A stretch of DNA of 64,000 nt from Calditrichaceae bacterium. GTDB lineage: Bacteria; Calditrichota; Calditrichia; Calditrichales; JBFXGD01. Under the pieces are notes generated by a model, which searched no databases, was not told the DNA's origin, and worked only from the letters and a program-made list of their open reading frames with translations. The DNA is taken from positions 584-64,583 of the forward strand of contig JBFXLE010000008.1 of assembly GCA_050173015.1 (NCBI GenBank), in the 5' to 3' direction. Made by a program: the position numbers and the translations under genes. Shown one piece after another: positions 6,767 through 17,791 of the stretch (the first letter of the stretch is position 1; each line of letters starts with the position of its first letter).

Positions 6767-7357
6767 ATGGTAAAATTGGACACTGAAACAAGACAAAAAC
6801 AAATTATTGAAGTGTCGCTTCGATTAATAAAAGAAGGCGGCATTCAAAACATGACGATGAAACGCATCGCGGATGAGGTGGGAATTTCCGAACAGGCCAT
6901 TTATCGTCATTTTGACAGCAAACTGGAACTTCTCACCGCCATCATCCGTCAATTTGACAAACATTTTGTCTCGGTTTTTAGCAAAATCAAGTCGATCGAA
7001 AACTCAGTTCAGCAGATTACTCAATATATCGATACACACCTGATTTATTTCACTCAAAATCCGGCCGCGGCCGCCGTAATTTTTTCAGAAGAGATTTTTC
7101 AGAATGAAGAAACACTTGTTCAGGAAGTAAAAAAGCTTCTTGAAAAGCGCATACAGTTTGTCACCGAACTGATGCAAAATGGCCAGAACCGCGGAGAAAT
7201 CAAAACCGAATATAGCGCCGACACTCTCGCCGTTCTTACACTCGGTGCGATGAGAATATTGATTACTTCCTGGAGACTGTCCAATTTCTCTTTTGATCTC
7301 AAAAGCAGAAGCAAATCGATTATCGATGACTTGATCAAAATGCTTCAGGTTAAGTAG
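6767..7357 (+). CDS. TetR/AcrR family regulator (paralogue 1)
   Basis: N-terminal HTH IADEVGISEQAIYRHFDSK. Confidence 0.95.
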   Translation: MVKLDTETRQKQIIEVSLRLIKEGGIQNMTMKRIADEVGISEQAIYRHFDSKLELLTAIIRQFDKHFVSVFSKIKSIENSVQQITQYIDTHLIYFTQNPAAAAVIFSEEIFQNEETLVQEVKKLLEKRIQFVTELMQNGQNRGEIKTEYSADTLAVLTLGAMRILITSWRLSNFSFDLKSRSKSIIDDLIKMLQVK

Positions 7358-7531: not shown

Positions 7532-8140
7532 ATGAAAAAAATTAATGCAGTGGACCGGATCGTTTTGCTTTTGACAGGATTACTGGCTGCGTATCAGGTT
7601 GTTGAAGGAATGCACGGTTATGAATTTTGGACTACCTTTTATTATACAACAGCGTTTGGTGTGCTTTTAATCGCCGGTCTGTTGATTATATTGTTTGGAT
7701 TTGATATTCTCGATAGCCCCATGGTTGTGGTTGTGGCCACCATCCTTCCCCTCACTCTTTCTCTTGGTCTGATATCCAATTATTTACCGGAATATCATAG
7801 CGGCTATTCGATTTTCGCCATTGCCGGTTTTATTTTAGTGGCAGTGACCCGATATACCACCGGCGGAAAATCCGCGACTATTTCCCTTGCCATCGTTCAT
7901 GGTATCGCCGGGATGATCATTTTTCTGTTGCCTATAATCTTTAGCATACGGGGCAATACCAATCCGGTGTTCGCGTTCGTCGGATTAGGCGGGGCGCTTA
8001 TCGGATTAGGCGGATTATTGCTCGCTTTTTTAAAAGCCGGTAAACCCATTCTTTCGCGTGATCTTATCTTTATGATTCTGCCCCTACTTCTGCTTTTAAT
8101 GACCGCTTCTTTTGTGATCGGATTTTCAGGAGCCGTCTAA
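7532..8140 (+). CDS. Uncharacterised ~7-TM membrane protein (paralogue 1)
   Basis: About seven hydrophobic helices; shares GGxLIGxGGxxLAFLKAGxPILS and HxxAG with 9008 and 13104; ATG at 7532 after GGGAG. Confidence 0.85.
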   Translation: MKKINAVDRIVLLLTGLLAAYQVVEGMHGYEFWTTFYYTTAFGVLLIAGLLIILFGFDILDSPMVVVVATILPLTLSLGLISNYLPEYHSGYSIFAIAGFILVAVTRYTTGGKSATISLAIVHGIAGMIIFLLPIIFSIRGNTNPVFAFVGLGGALIGLGGLLLAFLKAGKPILSRDLIFMILPLLLLLMTASFVIGFSGAV

Positions 8141-8192
8141 ATTCTTTCAGACGGAATATGATCTTAATATTTAATTTCAATTTGCTACGACA

Positions 8193-8222
8193 CCCCGTCT
8201 TAAATAAAGACGGGGAGTTTAT
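8193..8222 (+). terminator. Hairpin, probable terminator
   Basis: CCCCGTCTT-aaata-AAGACGGGG followed by AGTTTAT. Confidence 0.55.
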
Positions 8223-8278
8223 TCAATAGCAACTTTCAGACAATCAATTTCCTTTAAGTGAAAAAAATATTTTTTTTA

Positions 8279-8330
8279 TTGACATGAGATATTGTAGTTA
8301 TTAAGTTTCTGTTAGTAGATATAAACTAAC
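8279..8330 (+). promoter_or_regulatory. Sigma70 promoter plus TetR operator (copy 2)
   Basis: TTGACA-N17-TAAGTT followed by TCT-GTTAGT-N8-ACTAAC (perfect half-sites, 8311-8330). Confidence 0.75.
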
Positions 8331-8351
8331 TTAAACATTATGGACTAAATT

Positions 8352-8942
8352 ATGCAGAAATTGGATACCGCTACCAGACAGAAACAGATCGTACAGGTCT
8401 CTCTTGAAATTATTAAGACCGGTGGCATTCAGAATCTTACAATTAAAGAAATTTCAAAGCATATCGGTATCTCCGAACAGGCCATTTACAGGCATTTTGA
8501 CAATAAACTGGCCATATTAATCGCTATCATTCAATATTTTAATGAGCACTTCAAACATGTCTTTGAAAGCAGCCAGTATTTTGGCACCCCGCTTCAGCAG
8601 ATTGAGAAACTCATTAATGATCATTTATTATATTTTGACCGTAATCCGGCTACGGCGGCCGTCATTTTTTCGGAAGAAATTTTTCAAAACGACTCTACCC
8701 TTGTGGATGAAGTACATAAACTGGTGGATCGCAGAATACGTTTTGTGACCGCGCTCATTAAAAAAGGTCAGAAGATGGGTGAAATCAAAGATCAGTTCGT
8801 CCCGGAAAATCTGGCTTATATCATTCTCGGTACATTAAGATTTTTTGTTACTAAATGGCGTCTGACCAACTTCTCATTTAGTCTTCAGGCAAGAGGTGAG
8901 ACGTTGTCTCAGGATCTGATTAAATTTATACGATGTCAATAA
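8352..8942 (+). CDS. TetR/AcrR family regulator (paralogue 2)
   Basis: HTH GISEQAIYRHFD identical to paralogue 1; same length (196 aa). Confidence 0.95.
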   Translation: MQKLDTATRQKQIVQVSLEIIKTGGIQNLTIKEISKHIGISEQAIYRHFDNKLAILIAIIQYFNEHFKHVFESSQYFGTPLQQIEKLINDHLLYFDRNPATAAVIFSEEIFQNDSTLVDEVHKLVDRRIRFVTALIKKGQKMGEIKDQFVPENLAYIILGTLRFFVTKWRLTNFSFSLQARGETLSQDLIKFIRCQ

Positions 8943-8970
8943 GCAACGGGAAAATTATTTAGTTAATTTA

Positions 8971-8990
8971 GTTAGTTTTTATTAACTAAC
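8971..8990. promoter_or_regulatory. TetR operator (copy 3)
   Basis: GTTAGT-TTTTATTA-ACTAAC just upstream of the RBS of 9008. Confidence 0.7.
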
Positions 8991-9007
8991 ATTTTAAAAG
9001 GAGAGTC

Positions 9008-9637
9008 ATGATGAGTTTATTTGATCAACTTACGCTGCTCTTAACCGGCCTGGTCGCGATCTATATTATCTCGAAGTTTTACAGGGATTTTAAAGTTGAC
9101 GTTGCCAGACCTATCCATGACATCTATTATATGATCGGATTTACCGTATTACTGGTGGCCGGATTATTAATGATATTCCTGGGATTTGATGTTCTCGCGA
9201 ATCCCCTCGTAGTCGTTGTTGCGGCATTTATTCCCTTCGCATTATCCATCGGTCTTATATCCGAATTTTATCCCAAATTCGAGAAAATGTATCTTATTTT
9301 TGCTCTAATTGGTCTGATTTTGATTTTCCTGACACGTACTACAGAGTCAACCGTTCTTAGAACTCTTATCCTCGCTGTCTTTCACTCTGTGGCAGGCATA
9401 ACTATTTTTTTAGTACCTATTCTCGCGTCTAAAAACCAAAAAACCACCAATCAGTTTATCTGGGTTACTGTCGGCGGGACTTTGATCGGTATCGGTGGAA
9501 TCGCTCTTGCTTTTCTAAAAGCAGGCACTCCTATCCTGTCAAAAGAACTGATTTTTACCATATTAACCCCGCTTTTATTTCTGATGGCCGTGTCTTTTGC
9601 ATTCGGTTTTGCAAAAAAGATGGACTATCAAAAATGA
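9008..9637 (+). CDS. Uncharacterised ~7-TM membrane protein (paralogue 2)
   Basis: FHSVAG and GGTLIGIGGIALAFLKAGTPILS; AGGAG RBS. Confidence 0.85.
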   Translation: MMSLFDQLTLLLTGLVAIYIISKFYRDFKVDVARPIHDIYYMIGFTVLLVAGLLMIFLGFDVLANPLVVVVAAFIPFALSIGLISEFYPKFEKMYLIFALIGLILIFLTRTTESTVLRTLILAVFHSVAGITIFLVPILASKNQKTTNQFIWVTVGGTLIGIGGIALAFLKAGTPILSKELIFTILTPLLFLMAVSFAFGFAKKMDYQK

Positions 9638-9699
9638 ATATATGAATAACAACAATTTGAATTAATTAATTAATACTAACTTAAGGAAGGGTTTTAAGT

Positions 9700-11226
9700 A
9701 TGAAATCATCAACCGGGTACTTTAATTACCTCTTCAGATCGACAAAAGGCCTTGTGCTGGTTGCCATCTCCGTAGTCTCACTTATTACGGCAATCTGGGG
9801 CACTCTGTCCGGTCCCATGGTTGAATGGGGCGTGCGCGATCTGACAGTTAAACTGCTGGGTATGGATATGCATCACTGGGATCGTGAGGGACGCATTATT
9901 ATGCTCTATCACACCATTGCTATGGCAGTTTTAGCTATCGAAGTATATTTTATTACATCGATCGTTCCCATGAAAAAGCATCAGCAGGTTAATATCAACG
10001 CCACCATAACGGTGGGATATTTAACCGCCACCATTTTTGGACTTTGGTTCGCATATTTTGGACATGCTTATATTTTTCACGGTTTGTTTTTAGTCGGTCA
10101 GTCACTGGTCTTTTTCGCCGGCGTTTTATTGGCCGCCGCCTTGTGGCCATGGAATAAGGAATACTACCTGGCCGCAGACAGCGATTATGCCCATACAAAA
10201 TCAGGTATGGACCTTGAACGGGCGGCATTTTTTACGATGGCCGTAATGACATTACTTTCCGCCACATGGGGAGCTGTCACCGGTTCCTACTGGTCAAACG
10301 GGCATGAGACATTTTTGGCAGAAAACCTGATTCGCAATCCCCATAAAACAGCTCTGGAACACGCCATTATCGGACATTTGCACATTATGCTCTCGTTAGT
10401 GGCAGTAGCCATTACGCTGGTTGTCGGCAGATGGCTGGATTTCAAAGGAATGTTGCATAGGTGGGCCATGTATTTAATGATCCCTGGTACCATTATCCTT
10501 ACCTTGGGAGCATTGTCTATCGTATGGCTGCCATGGGCTCACAACACTATTTATGTCGGTTCGGTGGGCGTCATGTTGGCCGCGCTGCTCTATGTAATCT
10601 ATTCCTGGAAAAAGTTAATCAATGACCGTGTTGCCGAACTTGGATTAAGCAACCCTACCGTCTTTCAAAAAGTTAAAGCCCTGCTTCATGATCCACTTAA
10701 ATTCGGTACAGGCTGGCAGATGGTATTTATGAACTTCACAGTAAGCGGCGTGGGTATCTTTATGGCTGTCAAATTAGATAAAATTTTCCGTGTCTGGCCC
10801 GCCCGCGAAGAACGCATTACTCTGACCGGTCACTGGCATATTCTCGCCGCCATCATCGCTACTATCATTCTAATGTATTATGTGGATATGTCCGGCGTAA
10901 AAGGGAAAATAAGACAATGGTTTGGCTGGATACTCATTATCGGTTCGGATATCGCTTTTGCCTCAGCCACTATTTTTTCAATGAAACGGCTTTTTGTCAC
11001 CGAATACGCAAAGCAGCCATTAGTGAACATGACCATGTTGCTTATGGATTTTGGTCTGGGCGCCATATTGATTATTCTGGCTATTTTAATGGGTTGGCGA
11101 CTTTTTGATTTATTTAAACAGGATGGATTATGGAAAAAAGAAGCGATAAATCCTGAAGTGGACATACAGAGAATTTTTCCCGCGGCGCCTGTAAAAGATC
11201 TCAATGTTGAACAGGAGGTGAACTAA
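9700..11226 (+). CDS. ~12-TM His-rich membrane protein, divergent heme-copper oxidase subunit I / NnrS-like
   Basis: About 12 hydrophobic helices; His71 (helix II), H127, GHLH (226/228), H281, GHWH (378/380); heme O synthase two genes downstream. The ORF is secure; the family is inferred. Confidence 0.6.
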   Translation: MKSSTGYFNYLFRSTKGLVLVAISVVSLITAIWGTLSGPMVEWGVRDLTVKLLGMDMHHWDREGRIIMLYHTIAMAVLAIEVYFITSIVPMKKHQQVNINATITVGYLTATIFGLWFAYFGHAYIFHGLFLVGQSLVFFAGVLLAAALWPWNKEYYLAADSDYAHTKSGMDLERAAFFTMAVMTLLSATWGAVTGSYWSNGHETFLAENLIRNPHKTALEHAIIGHLHIMLSLVAVAITLVVGRWLDFKGMLHRWAMYLMIPGTIILTLGALSIVWLPWAHNTIYVGSVGVMLAALLYVIYSWKKLINDRVAELGLSNPTVFQKVKALLHDPLKFGTGWQMVFMNFTVSGVGIFMAVKLDKIFRVWPAREERITLTGHWHILAAIIATIILMYYVDMSGVKGKIRQWFGWILIIGSDIAFASATIFSMKRLFVTEYAKQPLVNMTMLLMDFGLGAILIILAILMGWRLFDLFKQDGLWKKEAINPEVDIQRIFPAAPVKDLNVEQEVN

Positions 11227-12146
11227 TGAACAAGCTATTTTATATTTTATCATCTCTGATCTTAATGTTCAGTATTTCATGCAACGCTCAGGACTATACA
11301 CCGACAAAAGAAATTAAATTCATTGATACCGGGATTGATGCAGAAGCCTGGGTTGAAATTCCGGCAGGCATATTTTTGAAGGGAATGCATCGTCATGAAA
11401 CAATGATTGAAAATCCTTTTGAAATTATGGTTACCGATGTAACCAACGCGCAGTATGTCAGATATCTTAACGAAGCCTTGGAAAAGGGCACCATAAAAGT
11501 TGAAGGAGATTCGGTAAGAGGATACTATCCCGGGGAGCCGTTCGATGGATATAAACATGAATTTGAAGTTCCGGCGGGTGATAAACTACATCTGAATTTA
11601 GCAGAGCCCGGTATGCGCATTCTCTTTGATGGGACATCCTTTTCAGTGGTGAGTGGATTTGAAAATCATCCTGTTACATTCGTGACATGGTTTGGCGCTA
11701 ATGCGTATGCCGAATTTTACGGCTGGCGTTTACCATTGGAAGACGAATGGGAAAAAGCCGCTCGTGGAACGGATGGGCGAACTTATCCCTGGGGTGAAAA
11801 AATCTCCCCAAATATCACAAACTATCTCAGTAGTCATAATCTTTTTGAGAGAATGCTTGGCGAAAATACAACCACAACGGCCGTCGGTTTTTATAATGGC
11901 AAAACATACGATGGCTACGAGACTCTTGAAAATAAAAGCCCCTATGGATTATATGATATGGCGGGAAATGTCTGGCAGTGGTGCGGGGATGATTATCCCG
12001 ATTTACACTATCGATATATGCGAGGCGGGAGCCGTGATAACTATGAATATAATCTGTTTACATGGGCTCGAAACAACGCCGGTCCCGACTTCTACAGTAT
12101 GTATGTGGGATTCAGATGTGCAAGGGACGTTCAACCAACAGAATAA
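11226..12146 (+). CDS. FGE-sulfatase (SUMF1/NirV-like) domain lipoprotein
   Basis: Lipobox SISC; VTNAQY, HPVTFVTW, RLPLEDEWEKAARG, YGLYDMAGNVWQW, RGGS, GFRC; TAATG overlap with the upstream gene. Confidence 0.92.
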   Translation: MNKLFYILSSLILMFSISCNAQDYTPTKEIKFIDTGIDAEAWVEIPAGIFLKGMHRHETMIENPFEIMVTDVTNAQYVRYLNEALEKGTIKVEGDSVRGYYPGEPFDGYKHEFEVPAGDKLHLNLAEPGMRILFDGTSFSVVSGFENHPVTFVTWFGANAYAEFYGWRLPLEDEWEKAARGTDGRTYPWGEKISPNITNYLSSHNLFERMLGENTTTTAVGFYNGKTYDGYETLENKSPYGLYDMAGNVWQWCGDDYPDLHYRYMRGGSRDNYEYNLFTWARNNAGPDFYSMYVGFRCARDVQPTE

Positions 12147-12210
12147 TATGATTCAATTATGGATGGTACAAGGTTCCCAGGGAAGGGATTTTAATAGTTA
12201 GGATTTCATT

Positions 12211-13107
12211 ATGAAGAATAAAAATATATTTCATGAATCAAGGACTCTTTTCAGGGCAAAGTTTAAATTATACTGGCCTTTGATAAAAAGTCTTCAAACC
12301 GGACTATTGGTGATTACCGGAATAACGGGGTACATCAGTGCCAGATGCCCCGTTATAACCTGGGATGTATTTGCCGGTCTGATCGGCAGTCTATTTCTTA
12401 CGGTCAGTGGTAGCACTGTTCTTAACATGATTTATGACAGAGATATAGACGCAAAAATGGGCAGAACGGCACACCGACCCCTGCCATCCGGCAAACTAAG
12501 TGTGAAGGAAACACTTGTTCTGGGATCGTTTTTGTCTTTTGCGGGCTTATTTTGGGCATTTATGCTCTCTGTTCCCTATGGAATGGTCGTTTTCGCCGGG
12601 ATCTTCATCGATGTTGTCATCTACACCATCTGGCTTAAAAGAAAAACCGCCTGGTCGATTATTTGGGGCGGCGTTTCCGGCGGCATGCCGATTTTGGCGG
12701 GAAGAGTACTGGGTCTGGGTCATGTTGACAGCATAGGGCTTTTGTTCGCCCTGGCAATACTTTTGTGGATACCTACCCATATCATGACATTCAGTATGCG
12801 TTACTTTGATGATTACAAACGCGCGGGTGTCCCCACTTTTCCATCGACTTACGGCAACAAAAAAACAACACTGGTGATTGCCTTTTCGAGTCTTGCAGCG
12901 GCTGTCGCTATCGGAATTGGCGCCGTCGCGCTGGGCCTTTCCTGGGGCTATCTGCGCCTTTTTATAGTTCTTTCGACCGGTATCCTGGGTCTTGCCATAG
13001 TCATTGTATTCCGACCTTCGGAAAAAGTGAATTTCGGCATGTTTAAGTATGCCTCTGTATACATGCTCAGCTCAATGATCATGATCGCGTTGGGGGTCAT
13101 GTCATGA
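12211..13107 (+). CDS. ctaB: Protoheme IX farnesyltransferase (heme O synthase)
   Basis: UbiA-family NMIYDRDIDAKMGRTAHRPLPSG, YTIWLKRKT, WIPTH, DDYKRAGVP. Confidence 0.92.
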   Translation: MKNKNIFHESRTLFRAKFKLYWPLIKSLQTGLLVITGITGYISARCPVITWDVFAGLIGSLFLTVSGSTVLNMIYDRDIDAKMGRTAHRPLPSGKLSVKETLVLGSFLSFAGLFWAFMLSVPYGMVVFAGIFIDVVIYTIWLKRKTAWSIIWGGVSGGMPILAGRVLGLGHVDSIGLLFALAILLWIPTHIMTFSMRYFDDYKRAGVPTFPSTYGNKKTTLVIAFSSLAAAVAIGIGAVALGLSWGYLRLFIVLSTGILGLAIVIVFRPSEKVNFGMFKYASVYMLSSMIMIALGVMS

Positions 13108-13712
13108 AAAAATTATCCGGCGTCAGCCGGATGGCGCTTTTAATGACGGCAATGCTCGCGGCTTTCCAAATAGTCTCGGGAATTGAAGGCACTCCCATAC
13201 TTTCAGGAGTTTATTATACTATCTCCTTCGGAGTTCTTCTGGTCGCGGCTTTACTACTGATTTTATTCGGGTTTGAGATCATGGAATTTCCTGCGATCGC
13301 GGTGATTGCCACCATCATCCCAAACGCTCTTTCATTGGGTCTGGTCGCGCAATATCTGCCTGAATATCACATTTCTTATCTTGCTGTGGTATTAATCGAA
13401 CTGCTTTCCATGGCAGTTTCAAGATATTTTTCAAGTTCAAAGCAAATTATAACCATAGTAACATCAATCACTCACGGGACGGCGGGACTTATTATATTCA
13501 TCTTCCCGCTTTGGCTCAGTATAGCCGGGACCACTAAACCGATTTTTTCGCTTGTCGGGGCCGGCGGGGCCCTTATCGGTTCCGGTGGACTGCTTCTGGC
13601 ATTTTTAAAAGCCGGAAAACCAATCTTGTCCCGTGATACAATTTTTTCAATCCTGCCTGTCATACTTTTAGTGATGACGGCAGCTTTTGTCGTCGGTATG
13701 ACTGCAGGTTAG
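13104..13712 (+). CDS. Uncharacterised ~7-TM membrane protein (paralogue 3)
   Basis: THGTAG and GGALIGSGGLLLAFLKAGKPILS; ATGA overlap with ctaB. Confidence 0.85.
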   Translation: MKKLSGVSRMALLMTAMLAAFQIVSGIEGTPILSGVYYTISFGVLLVAALLLILFGFEIMEFPAIAVIATIIPNALSLGLVAQYLPEYHISYLAVVLIELLSMAVSRYFSSSKQIITIVTSITHGTAGLIIFIFPLWLSIAGTTKPIFSLVGAGGALIGSGGLLLAFLKAGKPILSRDTIFSILPVILLVMTAAFVVGMTAG

Positions 13713-13782: not shown

Positions 13783-14805
13783 ATGCTAAACAAAACGAAC
13801 AAAACTCAGCGCATTGTTATGGCTGTTACCGCGGTTATCGCCGGTTTGTTCATGATGTACATCGCGCCTACCCAGGGAATGCAGACTCTAAAGATCGCGC
13901 TGGAAAATGTTATGGAACGACTTATCCCGTTCGATCCGGATTTTTATCCGGCTGTACCAATCTTAGGGGCCACATATGGGGTCTGGATGGTAATTCTTTG
14001 GCTAGCGGGAGCCTTTGCGATTGTTATCGCGAAAAAAGTCTATGAGGGTGAAGAGTGGGCAAGAAGCACAATGCTTGGTCTGGCGGCAATCCCATCCGTA
14101 GCCGGTATGACCATGTTGATACCATGGATGGTGCTTGTCGTTTCCGATTATTCTACCGGACCGGTTCCGGGCATTTTACCTCCACCCGCTGATATTTCGG
14201 TGATGCCACCGGTATTATGGACGATGGTTTTCGGCCTGATTTTCTATTATATCTTCCTGCTTGCCGATCAGGATTCATTAAAAAATAAGATCCTTAAACT
14301 TATCCCTTACACATATCTTGGCATTGTAGCCGGAATGGTATTTATGAACGGCCAGCATGGTGTGCGCTATTTCATCTTTATTCCGGAATACCTGACACAT
14401 ACATCTTCACTTGAGCCGTTGGGTAATTTCTTTACCAATCTGGACCACTATGACGCGTTGGCTTTGGTCACAACTTCACAGGCAGCCATTAATGCCGGTG
14501 AAATTGCAAAAACAACTGAAGCGGTTTATAATCCCAACACATTGACACTTCTGTTGGGTGGATTCATGAACTACGCCTCTTCATATCTGATGATATTAGC
14601 AATACCATTCCTGGCGATGAAGAAAAAAATCGGTTATTATACCGTTCTTGCAACCGCATTGGCAACCGCCCTTATCGGTTTTGACGGTTATATTGTACGT
14701 CATTCATTTGAATGGGGTGTCGGTGGAGTTATGTCGCTGGCATTGTTGGGCGTTTTCCTGCTTCCTGTATTTAAACAGTTCTTTATTGAAGAAAAAGCAG
14801 TTTAA
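13783..14805 (+). CDS. Uncharacterised multi-pass membrane protein
   Basis: About 8 hydrophobic segments, MNGQHGVRYF motif, GGAG RBS. Confidence 0.8.
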   Translation: MLNKTNKTQRIVMAVTAVIAGLFMMYIAPTQGMQTLKIALENVMERLIPFDPDFYPAVPILGATYGVWMVILWLAGAFAIVIAKKVYEGEEWARSTMLGLAAIPSVAGMTMLIPWMVLVVSDYSTGPVPGILPPPADISVMPPVLWTMVFGLIFYYIFLLADQDSLKNKILKLIPYTYLGIVAGMVFMNGQHGVRYFIFIPEYLTHTSSLEPLGNFFTNLDHYDALALVTTSQAAINAGEIAKTTEAVYNPNTLTLLLGGFMNYASSYLMILAIPFLAMKKKIGYYTVLATALATALIGFDGYIVRHSFEWGVGGVMSLALLGVFLLPVFKQFFIEEKAV

Positions 14806-14901: not shown

Positions 14902-16089
14902 GTGAAAAATATTACACTTTCGATGCTTTTGGTTCTGTCTCTCTCCATATCAACTGCGCTGGCTACAGACGGAGATCAGATGTTGGGTATTACAGCTAAT
15001 CAATGGGCCCGCGCCGGTGCGATTATTGCAGCGCCGGCTGATATTCCAAGTATGATATATAATCCCGCGGCAATTGGTGAATTAAAATTCAACAAAATCG
15101 GTTTTGACCTGAGTCTGGGTATACTGAATCCACCACGTGAAATCACTTCTGTCAAGGGTACTACCGAGAGTAGCGCCAATACCTATCTTGGTATGGGTAA
15201 CGGGTTCAGCGCGCGGAAATCTGATAAGATTGTATTTGGAATTGCGGCCGGCGGCGTTTCCGGAATGGGTGTTGATTTTCCCTATAGTACTTTCCCTGAC
15301 AATCCTGAAACACCATTTGCGGAAAACTCATCCATCGTAACCAAAAAAGGGTTGTTAAAAATAACACCTACCGTGGCAATAAATGTGAATGAGAAATTGA
15401 CAATCGGCGCATCACTGCAAATTGGACAACAATCATTGGCCCTTAAAACAGCCGGATTCACCTTACCGCAAACGGAAGAATATGGATTTGGCGGTGCTCT
15501 AGGAGCCATTTATCACATTACTCCTAAACTTCAGGCCGGAATTTCTTATACATCTGAGATGAATATTTCTGAATATTCTTACAACGGCACCAGCCCTTCC
15601 GCCGGTGAAGGCGAATATAAGTTTGATATGGATAGCCCGCAGAATGTTTCATTTGGTCTGGCATTTATTCCGAATGAAAGATTGTTGGTTGAAGCTGACG
15701 TCAGATGGTATAACTTTTCCGGTGTTCTTGATAAACTGGATCTAAAAACACCTTCAGGAGGCGTTATACCGATTACATTTGGTTGGGACGACCAAATGGT
15801 TTATGCTCTCGGAATGGATTTTGCCGTAAAACCCGGGTTAGTCTTAAAAGCCGGCTATAATTATGGCGAATCTCCCATTGGTGAAGAAGACGTGGACAGC
15901 AACCTCGGTTCCATCGCCGTCGTCGAGCACCATTTTTCAATTGGTGTCGCAAAAAACTGGAACAAGGCTTTATGTTCTACCCTTTCCTATACACACGGCT
16001 TGCATAATGAAGTTGAATCCAATAAATCACCAAATAAAATTGCCGCGGAACAAAATATTGTATTTTTACAATTCAGTTTTCGTATGTAA
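14902..16089 (+). CDS. OmpP1/FadL family outer-membrane transporter
   Basis: Signal peptide, YNPAAI hatch motif, GMGVDF, LKAGYNYGESPI, C-terminal FLQFSFRM beta-signal. Confidence 0.88.
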   Translation: MKNITLSMLLVLSLSISTALATDGDQMLGITANQWARAGAIIAAPADIPSMIYNPAAIGELKFNKIGFDLSLGILNPPREITSVKGTTESSANTYLGMGNGFSARKSDKIVFGIAAGGVSGMGVDFPYSTFPDNPETPFAENSSIVTKKGLLKITPTVAINVNEKLTIGASLQIGQQSLALKTAGFTLPQTEEYGFGGALGAIYHITPKLQAGISYTSEMNISEYSYNGTSPSAGEGEYKFDMDSPQNVSFGLAFIPNERLLVEADVRWYNFSGVLDKLDLKTPSGGVIPITFGWDDQMVYALGMDFAVKPGLVLKAGYNYGESPIGEEDVDSNLGSIAVVEHHFSIGVAKNWNKALCSTLSYTHGLHNEVESNKSPNKIAAEQNIVFLQFSFRM

Positions 16090-16104: not shown

Positions 16105-16136
16105 GAAGAGCCGTCACTGACGGCTCTTCTTTTGTT
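16105..16136 (+). terminator. Intrinsic terminator
   Basis: GAAGAGCCGTCA-C-TGACGGCTCTTC followed by TTTTGTT. Confidence 0.85.
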
Positions 16137-16208: not shown

Positions 16209-16919
16209 ATGACTAATTCAAAAAAATACATTTTCTTTTTTCTGACTGCTGCGCTGTTAATGTCGTCTGGCCTCAGCCAGGCGGGAGATGACACTCAGTT
16301 TCTGCCTGATTTTTATGACAAAGTTGAACCGATTATTTTAGTTGATCCCCTTGGTTCTTTTCTTGGTGCCGTAAACGAAGGTGAAACCTATGTCTATCAT
16401 TACGCCGACATTATAAAATACAGTGGACATTCATGCTCCTCTATTGCCGGAGCGTATAAAATGACACAAATCGCGCTAAAAGAACTATACGGGACTGAAA
16501 CACCGGTTCGCGGTCAGATAAGAGTCACCATGAAGGGAAGCCCCGAGTATCAGGTAAATGGTCCCATCTCACAAGCGATTTCGTTCATAACCGGTGCCGC
16601 GGCAGAGACCGGATTTAAAGGCATAAAAGGTAAATTCTTTACCCGTCAAAACCTTTTAAAATACGAACCGGAGAATCCCCCGGCAGAAGGTGTCTGGGCG
16701 GAAGCTACTTTTCAGAGGACGGATAATAATCAATCAGTGACGGTTACTTACAGAACGGACCTGATTCCCGGAAATCCTGAAATGGGAAAACTTATGCCGG
16801 TTATGTTAAGCGGAAAAGCCAACGAAGAACAGAAAAAACTATTTGGTGAAATCTGGCAGGAAGCGGTGCGGATCGCCCTGATGGACCCGCCGGATGGTAC
16901 ATTTGTTGTTTCAAAATAA
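16209..16919 (+). CDS. FmdE-like protein with signal peptide
   Basis: GHSCSSIAGAY, PVRGQI, FITGAA, GFKG; hydrophobic N-terminus ending SQA. Confidence 0.7.
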   Translation: MTNSKKYIFFFLTAALLMSSGLSQAGDDTQFLPDFYDKVEPIILVDPLGSFLGAVNEGETYVYHYADIIKYSGHSCSSIAGAYKMTQIALKELYGTETPVRGQIRVTMKGSPEYQVNGPISQAISFITGAAAETGFKGIKGKFFTRQNLLKYEPENPPAEGVWAEATFQRTDNNQSVTVTYRTDLIPGNPEMGKLMPVMLSGKANEEQKKLFGEIWQEAVRIALMDPPDGTFVVSK

Positions 16920-17140: not shown

Positions 17141-17791
17141 ATGAAAACTCTTAGTGAAGTCAGTACCAAATTCAGATATGCATTTTATGATGAAGTCGAA
17201 CCGATCAAGCTTACTGATCCATTATCGGCATTTCTTGGCGCAACGCGTGATTCCGATGTTTTTGCATACAGCTATAAAGATATTGTAAAACTCAGCGGAC
17301 ATTCCTGTCCAACCGTGGCGGGAGCGTATAAATCGACTCAATTGGCATTAAAAAGTCTTTATGATAAGACGACTCCGGTCCGTGGTCAAATAAGAGTAAA
17401 AATAGCCGGAGGTCCTGAACAGCTGGTGAACGGTCCCGTATCACAGGTCATTACTTTTATTACAGGCGCGGCTCCGATCACAGGCTTCAAAGGAATAAAA
17501 GGAAAATTCAACCGTTACGAAATGCTTACATTTGATGAAAACGTACAGCCTGAAAAAGATGTTTCATCCGATATTCTGTTTGAGAGAACCGATTCGCATA
17601 AAAAAGTACGCGTTTTATATCGGCCGCAATTTATATATCAAAATCCGGAAATCGGCCGTCTGCTGCCCTTAATGTTAAGCGGGATGGCCACAGAGTCGGA
17701 TAAATTAAGCTTTGGTGATTTCTGGCAGGAACGTGTCCGGGTCATATTGCTGGAGACACCACCGGAGGCATTCGAGTTATTAAATTATTAA
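17141..17791 (+). CDS. FmdE-like protein (no signal peptide)
   Basis: GHSCPTVAGAY, PVRGQI, FITGAA; clear paralogue of 16209. Confidence 0.72.
   Translation: MKTLSEVSTKFRYAFYDEVEPIKLTDPLSAFLGATRDSDVFAYSYKDIVKLSGHSCPTVAGAYKSTQLALKSLYDKTTPVRGQIRVKIAGGPEQLVNGPVSQVITFITGAAPITGFKGIKGKFNRYEMLTFDENVQPEKDVSSDILFERTDSHKKVRVLYRPQFIYQNPEIGRLLPLMLSGMATESDKLSFGDFWQERVRVILLETPPEAFELLNY

Follow-up and report, generated by a model that had tools for sequence, protein, structure and literature searches.

In a 64,000-nucleotide stretch of the genome of a Calditrichaceae bacterium (GenBank assembly GCA_050173015.1, contig JBFXLE010000008.1, positions 584 to 64,583 of the forward strand; hereafter the window), three related membrane proteins, P1 (7532-8140), P2 (9008-9637) and P3 (13104-13712), are encoded close to a gene for a heme O synthase-like protein, CtaB (12211-13107), and the question raised by this locus is what the three proteins do there. 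They were found to be members of an unnamed family of seven-helix inner-membrane proteins of about 200 residues, here called the seven-transmembrane-helix (7TM) family. Its members are accessory components of a conserved set of genes whose core encodes a dedicated heme O synthase, a periplasmic protein of FGE fold and an unannotated protein of 508 residues (M508). It is very likely that the 7TM proteins belong to this oxidase-fold/heme O system as dedicated components, and they are probably heme-handling helpers or subunits of an undescribed respiratory-type enzyme; the narrower reading, in which they are His-ligated heme O handling partners, is put forward tentatively and with somewhat less than even confidence. 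New in this work are the oxidase-fold context, the two-subtype anatomy of the family, the coupling of one subtype to the synthase, the co-occurrence figures, and the limit that weakly matching M508 relatives set on these. The window features described below between 6767 and 16129 lie on the plus strand.

The 7TM family and its buried histidine

The three paralogues had been noticed in an earlier reading of the letters and open reading frames (ORFs) alone (the sequence-only reading), and all three ORFs were confirmed. P1 is 202 residues long when counted from its ATG (the longest ORF opens at TTG 7517 and gives 207 residues), P2 has 209 residues and P3 has 202. P1 and P3 are 55% identical, P1 and P2 47%, and P2 and P3 38%, so that P1 and P3 are indeed the closer pair; a whole-genome tblastn search with P1 recovered P3 at E 1.9e-31 and P2 at E 1.8e-18, far past chance. 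The motifs listed at that time, F-x-V-L-L, H-x-x-A-G and GGxLIGxGGxxLAFLKAGxPILS, are all present in the sequences. None of the three proteins had a match in Pfam (E 0.01) or NCBIfam, in keeping with the earlier claim of an unknown family, and a search of PDB chain sequences with profiles of the 7TM and M508 families gave nothing at E <=10. A word-indexed search returned 1628 relatives at E <=0.001. The 120 relatives listed were 197-220 residues long and without a Pfam domain, nearly all were labelled 'hypothetical protein', and they came from Chloroflexota/Anaerolineae, Calditrichaceae and 'Deltaproteobacteria' metagenome-assembled genomes (MAGs). When 1.84 billion cluster representatives were searched exhaustively with a profile, just 307 7TM clusters were obtained at E <=0.001, all of about 200 residues or fragments, the longest among the 150 listed having 259 residues.

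An AlphaFold2 model of P3, for which 39 diverse relatives were given as input, consists of seven helices (predicted local distance difference test, pLDDT, 96.2; predicted template modelling score, pTM, 0.91), as the sequence-only reading had proposed. The single conserved histidine, H124, sits mid-membrane in model helix 5 (residues 113-140), and its equivalent in P1 is H128 in the numbering of the 207-residue ORF. The distribution of Lys and Arg suggests an N-in, C-out topology, in which the conserved FLKxGxPIL loop would face the cytoplasm. Model comparisons indicate that the fold is a generic compact seven-helix bundle. A Foldseek search of the PDB with the model gave nothing at E <=0.001, and VIA-align wide gave Z 11-14 to G protein-coupled receptors (GPCRs), rhodopsins and designed GPCR-like bundles alike, a range that is common for helical bundles. 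The best Foldseek rows were rhodopsins (E 0.05, template modelling (TM) score 0.47-0.59), which share with the 7TM family seven helices of similar length, but identity to them is only 10-16%. A microbial rhodopsin was rejected, since helix 7 (residues 177-201 of the P3 model) contains no lysine at all in P1, P2 or P3; the absence of a retinal-binding lysine had already been remarked.

H124 is kept in 95 of the 97 7TM copies that are linked to the gene cluster. Across the family the only polar residues conserved at >=90% are T15, Y21, Y38 and H124, and the remaining conserved positions are Gly, Pro or apolar residues. In helix 5 the histidine forms a conserved stripe with G128, I131 and P135 along one helical face, and its motif, H-G-x-A-G, gives that face a Gly/Ala lining. 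Helix 6 is glycine-rich and its GGxLIGxGG motif is glycine-zipper-like. A conserved axial-type histidine inside the membrane, which is expected of membrane heme proteins in general, is thus present in the form of H124.

M508 and the conserved gene set

In the window, P2 ends 62 nucleotides before the start of the M508 gene (9700-11226). The stop codon of M508 overlaps the start of the FGE-sulfatase-fold gene (11226-12146; PF03781, E 2e-38) as TAATG, and the product of the latter has an N-terminal signal with a lipobox-like Cys, from which it appears to be a lipoprotein. CtaB follows (UbiA prenyltransferase family PF01040, E 1.3e-47, 162.7 bits); it scored 209.5 bits against the NCBIfam model TIGR01473 (cyoE_ctaB), for which the cut-off is 210.3. 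Its stop codon is overlapped by the ATG of P3 as ATGA. No CuA or cytochrome c subunit was found to be encoded in the core cluster by Pfam and synteny comparison. The genome also encodes ordinary oxidases: the aa3 type is represented by a CtaD, the cbb3 type by a fused CcoNO, and two further proteins of about 750 residues have a COX1 domain but no NCBIfam name. A second ctaB-like gene, on another contig (C22), adjoins the aa3 and cbb3 genes, and as its product is only 31% identical to the window CtaB, the latter is regarded as a dedicated paralogue.

M508 had no match in NCBIfam or in Pfam at E 0.01, including COX1 (PF00115), and an hhalign comparison of 20 M508 sequences with the four COX1 proteins of the genome gave a probability of 0.2%. 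Its AlphaFold2 model (pLDDT 73.7, pTM 0.80) was nevertheless matched best by cbb3 oxidase subunit CcoN in Foldseek (8smr_E, E 5e-4). With VIA-align the model gave Z 22.6 to CcoN chain 3mk7_A (395 residues aligned, root-mean-square deviation 4.0), 20.5 to the cytochrome c-dependent nitric oxide (NO) reductase 4xyd_A, 19.6 to ba3 and 18.2 to bo3, the NO reductase, ba3, caa3 and bo3 chains falling overall at Z 15-20.5 and the next unrelated chain at 10.6. Almost the entire length of M508 resembles subunit I of the heme-copper oxidases and of the NO reductases, and the protein is accordingly predicted to have the twelve-helix heme-copper oxidase subunit I fold. Seven histidines are invariant in 20 M508 homologues: H71, H127, H226, H228, H281, H378 and H380. 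H71 lies in model helix 2, and H378-W-H380 forms an H-x-H motif in helix 10, and these are the places at which canonical heme-copper oxidases ligate their two hemes. At the canonical CuB site the ligands are a single His of helix 6 and two adjacent His of helix 7; in the M508 model, helix 6 carries H-L-H and helix 7 (residues 251-275) contains no His-His pair, so that the canonical CuB arrangement was not found. If its predicted fold is correct, M508 must receive heme.

The gene set was followed across genomes by scanning one genome per species, which gave 327 stretches with a 7TM relative, of which 80 were kept. A tblastn search with the window proteins found CtaB in 76 of these 80 loci, the FGE-fold protein in 62, M508 in 60 and relatives of M340, a membrane protein encoded after P3, in 14. 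The order [7TM]-M508-FGE-CtaB-[7TM] recurs in Chloroflexota and Calditrichota, with cross-phylum identities of 57-74% for M508, 52-69% for CtaB and 48-65% for the FGE-fold protein. The 7TM proteins are 50-56% identical across phyla. A second full cluster is found in the source genome itself (contig C3, L089:5385-11723, minus strand) and consists of genes for a TetR regulator, a protein of the U263 family (see below), a fourth 7TM copy that is P2-like, M508, the FGE-fold protein, CtaB and a 132-residue membrane ORF. Identity to the window is 65% for M508 and 73% for CtaB.

A tree of 97 7TM copies, obtained from a quick maximum-likelihood IQ-TREE run, divided the family into a U clade of 31 copies and a D clade of 66, each with a Shimodaira-Hasegawa-like approximate likelihood ratio test (SH-aLRT) support of 100. 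The U clade holds all 25 copies that lie upstream of M508, together with P2 and the contig C3 copy, and the D clade holds all 54 copies that lie behind CtaB, together with P1 and P3. The closeness of P1 and P3 thus reflects two ancient orthologous groups with fixed positions in the operon, and the suggestion that diverged copies had been kept for distinct roles agrees well with this arrangement. P1, whose nearest relative in the tree comes from a Calditrichaceae MAG (locus L017), is an additional copy of the D type and was met only in the lineage of the window. A D-type copy lies directly behind CtaB in 75 of 75 judgeable loci, a figure that is biased because the loci were chosen through the 7TM proteins themselves. 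The median gap between the CtaB stop and the D-type start is 13 nucleotides (n=65), with 16 pairs overlapping and 27 at <=3 nucleotides, and the median gap between a U-type gene and M508 is 143 nucleotides (n=23). In five genomes a CtaB-7TM pair was found without an adjacent M508; three of these genomes have an intact M508 elsewhere, and in the other two none was found. When clusters are split in this manner, the D type stays with CtaB and not with M508-FGE. The contig C3 cluster contains no D-type copy, the 132-residue membrane ORF, for which there was no Pfam match, standing in its place.

The two subtypes bear on an idea of the sequence-only reading, that a hetero-oligomer of these proteins might ligate one heme through two His residues. 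In its fuller form, two protomers (U and D, or two D) would share a heme b by means of one His each and, as a small cytochrome subunit, pass quinol electrons to M508 without a cupredoxin or cytochrome c subunit. Hemes held at the interface of two subunits are known from SdhC/SdhD of succinate dehydrogenase and from cytochrome b559. Each protomer offers one conserved His, the helix 6 GGxLIGxGG motif would suit tight packing of helices or of a cofactor, and the core cluster is without a CuA or cytochrome c subunit of its own. Both subtypes are present together in 30 of the 45 loci that have at least 2.5 kb of flank, a U-type copy lying upstream of M508 in each. However, the other 15 loci lack an upstream U-type copy, which contradicts an obligatory U/D heteromer; there, and in the contig C3 cluster with its single subtype, a homodimer would be needed. 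The sequences also contain no recognisable quinone-site motif. We consider a cytochrome subunit of this kind improbable, and favour heme O handling.

The occurrence of the 7TM family follows that of M508 in whole genomes as well. Among 61 genomes of the window's phylum, Calditrichota, M508 was found in 12, and all 12 of these also have a 7TM protein; the sole case of a 7TM protein alone is a partial match of 22 bits. Locus L070 comes from a Chloroflexota-labelled MAG, and 121 genomes of the class to which this MAG belongs made up a second sample. In this sample a 7TM protein was found in 10 genomes, an M508 relative in 23 and both in 9. M508 scored at least 770 bits in 11 of these genomes, 9 of which have a 7TM protein.

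Proposed heme handling and a possible structural role

Under the reading that we favour, each 7TM protein would bind farnesylated heme through the single conserved mid-membrane His on the Gly/Ala face of helix 5. Heme O would pass from the synthase to the D type, and at M508 it would be held or delivered by the U type, the partners perhaps remaining in the mature enzyme. Heme handling is favoured because the buried His is almost the sole conserved polar group and lies on a small-residue helical face, because the D type is tied to a dedicated heme O synthase gene, from which it is not parted in split clusters, and because the neighbouring M508 must, on its predicted fold, receive heme. The sequence-only reading had named a carrier for the CtaB product as one possibility, and the part of this idea that concerns CtaB fits well with the close spacing of the two genes, their joint survival in split clusters, the near-constant His and the biased locus counts; the heme binding and the chaperone role themselves are still conjecture. 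The route of heme O or heme A from synthase to oxidase is, to our knowledge, poorly understood in bacteria. A literature search brought up no carrier for farnesylated heme, and a full-text search no paper on the 7TM family or its cluster. Where a Heimdallarchaeia preprint speaks of 'heme O' or 'oxidase', those passages concern canonical Cox and COX10 (10.1101/2025.02.26.640444).

Among the known systems nearest to this proposal are heme A synthase CtaA/Cox15 and other proteins that cooperate with heme O synthase, such as Surf1/Shy1 and COA8. The likeness is that of a membrane protein whose gene adjoins that of heme O synthase; such proteins plausibly act right after the synthase, and His residues are expected in them as heme ligands. 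CtaA and CtaB form a complex. The 7TM proteins differ in that they have no match to COX15 (PF02628), are built of seven helices rather than of eight in two four-helix halves, possess one conserved His instead of four, and are without any sign of a redox cofactor site of their own; no CtaA chain was among the rows listed by Foldseek or VIA-align for the 7TM model. A complex prediction with M508 (residues 1-485), CtaB and, as the partner, P3 gave values of 0.57, 0.57 and 0.62; the values were 0.00 and 0.00 with the partner swapped and 0.52 with M508 replaced by an unrelated protein. The prediction gave no verdict, and these values are of no use for or against binding.

Several observations weigh against heme handling. 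H124 is not strictly invariant: the two exceptions among the 97 cluster copies are one R and one Y, and of 39 diverse representatives 35 keep the His and four have Q, R, Y and Y. The His is therefore not variable among homologues, which the sequence-only reading had named as an outcome that would count against its proposal, and is not absolutely constant either. The loci were selected through the 7TM proteins, and the D-type figure of 75 in 75 is biased for that reason. No fused or longer 7TM form, including any fusion to CtaB or M508, was found in the searches, which is weak evidence. The gene order cyoABCDE shows that a heme O synthase gene also adjoins genes for plain oxidase subunits, and since such adjacency is usual for them, the position beside ctaB does not single out a chaperone. 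In the 121-genome sample, 12 genomes have an M508 relative of at most 454 bits, and in none of the 12 was a 7TM or FGE gene detected. Ten stretches around such weak relatives likewise held neither a 7TM nor an FGE gene; CtaB lies directly after M508 in four of them and is not adjacent in another four, and in the remaining two the M508 gene was missed by ORF calling. From these M508-CtaB pairs it is evident that an M508-type protein can obtain heme O without the help of the 7TM family. In genome G078, M508-FGE-CtaB is followed by a gene for a D226-like membrane protein (a family described below), and no 7TM gene was found.

Four of the loci without a 7TM protein (L096, L097, L099 and L102, from genomes G120, G051, G089 and G006) represent a distant M508 subtype that scored 231-262 bits and has CtaB directly after it, without FGE. 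Upstream of the distant M508, L099 and L097 encode a 495-residue protein with about 12 predicted helices, and L099 also encodes a 376-residue protein with about 8 predicted helices. On these comparisons CtaB accompanies M508-type proteins in general, and the 7TM family goes with the M508 subtype that carries FGE.

This distribution would also suit the U and D types being permanent, cofactor-free structural subunits of the M508 enzyme, which is the close rival of heme handling and to our minds a real if rather doubtful possibility. In such a role, comparable to that of subunit III or IV of A-family oxidases, they would stabilise the catalytic subunit, shape a lipid or gas path, or anchor the FGE-fold protein, and the His would be structural. 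The 7TM proteins co-occur with M508 and are positioned on both sides of it. Their restriction to the FGE-bearing subtype resembles the way in which accessory subunits vary among oxidase families, and their identity across phyla is close to the 48-74% of the other cluster genes. Subunit III (COX3/CtaE/CyoC) is likewise a small polytopic accessory protein, of five to seven helices and of similar size, that is encoded in an operon with an oxidase-fold subunit and heme O synthase and is present only in some oxidase families. The modelled 7TM protein, however, is a compact bundle like those of GPCRs and rhodopsins, and its family has two subtypes and one conserved buried His; the helices of subunit III form a V shape of two plus five. 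A likeness to subunit III or to cytochrome b, which the sequence-only reading had proposed to look for, was not borne out among the 50 rows listed by Foldseek or VIA-align; COX3 was not matched by P1, P2 or P3 in Pfam, and when the 39 diverse members were searched at E <=10, COX3 (PF00510) was not among the best 25 of 46 Pfam families. A buried His kept so widely amid Gly, Pro and apolar conservation would also be unusual in a purely structural protein, and in split clusters the D type goes with CtaB and not with M508-FGE.

If heme handling is correct, the 7TM family could be the first dedicated prokaryotic carrier of farnesylated heme, a relay with the D type on the synthase and the U type on M508 that loads an undescribed heme-O-dependent enzyme without canonical CuB in bacteria many of which are anaerobes; or the pair could itself be a new single-His cytochrome wiring quinol to this enzyme. 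Even taken together, these two outcomes are a speculative prospect that we would not yet expect to be realised. A small, highly conserved 7TM protein with a single buried His, a genetic tie to a dedicated heme O synthase and a nearly perfect co-occurrence with M508 is a concrete and easily expressed candidate for heme O binding and hand-over. It also adds two more components with fixed positions to a cryptic enzyme of respiratory type. Anaerolineae-type Chloroflexota and Calditrichota carry this enzyme widely, and current annotation misses it wholly.

Flanking genes and further clusters

P1 is set apart from the core operon. It has its own TetR-family regulator gene upstream (6767-7357; PF00440, E 1e-14), and behind it a pattern scan alone indicated a terminator-like hairpin (8193-8215; 9 pairs, 6 GC). 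A second TetR-family regulator gene (8352-8942; PF00440, E 1e-10), whose product is 55% identical to the first, opens the long unit to which P2, M508, FGE, CtaB and P3 belong. P3 is followed by the gene for M340 (13783-14805), a polytopic membrane protein without a Pfam or NCBIfam match, and by one for a FadL/TodX-type outer-membrane channel (14902-16089; PF03349, E 2.6e-22), a local addition seen only in the window's lineage. The probable end of the unit is a second terminator-like hairpin (16105-16129; 11 pairs, 7 GC), again from the pattern scan only.

These regulator and channel genes lend some colour to a ligand-binding or transport role, in which the 7TM proteins would be stand-alone kin of bacterial 7TM receptor modules that deal with a hydrophobic compound and are wired here to TetR and FadL. 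P1 and P2 each have a TetR gene before them, the last gene of the unit is of the FadL type, and the contig C3 cluster adjoins TetR, MMPL, LolA-like and DUF1302 genes. The structural neighbours of the 7TM family in the ESM Atlas include bacterial 7TM receptor modules, among them HisKA_7TM (PF16927) and GGDEF N-terminal modules, which are seven-helix bundles of about 200 residues and matched with a TM score of 0.67-0.75. Weak matches to 7TMR-DISM_7TM (PF07695) were obtained for 7 of the 39 diverse members (best E 2.5e-4), and for none of P1, P2 and P3 at E <=0.01. Unlike the receptor modules, all 7TM forms found are free of sensor and output domains, and the genomic link is to an enzyme operon rather than to signalling genes, the tight association across phyla being with CtaB and M508. 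Across the 80 loci, tblastn gave no FadL match, and L017, a near relative, alone had a TetR match; the 79 loci that lie outside the window's lineage have neither, and a Crp-family gene is common there. Generic 7TM bundles, moreover, score alike against GPCRs, rhodopsins and designed proteins. We regard a receptor-like or transport function as unlikely, and heme handling is still preferred.

Other genes recur around the cluster, and for the families D226, Crp, NapH-like and cytochrome the counts come from simple ORF calling and are lower bounds, as genes in GC-rich loci were missed. D226, a third unannotated membrane family, is encoded behind the D-type 7TM gene in at least 42 of the 80 loci. 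In Chloroflexota a Crp/Fnr-family regulator gene usually flanks the cluster (in at least 35 of the 80 loci, for example L002:3752-4438), and the Calditrichota version has TetR instead. A NapH-like Fer4_5 membrane protein is encoded in at least 10 of the loci, and multiheme cytochromes c in at least 7. Proteins of the U263 family are often encoded just upstream of the U-type 7TM gene (for example L003:2789-3580 and L089:10221-11012). The U263 and M340-like families are homologous to each other (hhalign 97.5%) and form one accessory family; neither this family nor D226 is related to the 7TM family, for which hhalign comparisons with D226, U263, M340-like, M508 and CtaB profiles all gave a probability of <=0.8%.

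Two further clusters were observed outside the window. A MAG contig labelled as a Methanosarcinales archaeon (L072) carries a bacterial-type M508-FGE-CtaB-7TM cluster with 52-63% identity to the window. Its 7TM protein groups tightly in the tree with those of the Anaerolineales-labelled loci L008 and L037, which suggests a recent transfer or a mistake in binning. In a related Calditrichota genome (G185, contig C25, 9432-19521), two M508 genes and three 7TM genes are packed into 10 kb, and two of the 7TM genes are immediate neighbours, an arrangement suggestive of a tandem duplication of the whole cluster. In the window itself, two tandem FmdE-like genes (16209-16919 and approximately 17165-17773; PF02663, E 2.4e-6), whose products are 54% identical to each other, lie just past the hairpin at the end of the unit, and locus L067 also has two FmdE-like matches near its CtaB-7TM pair.

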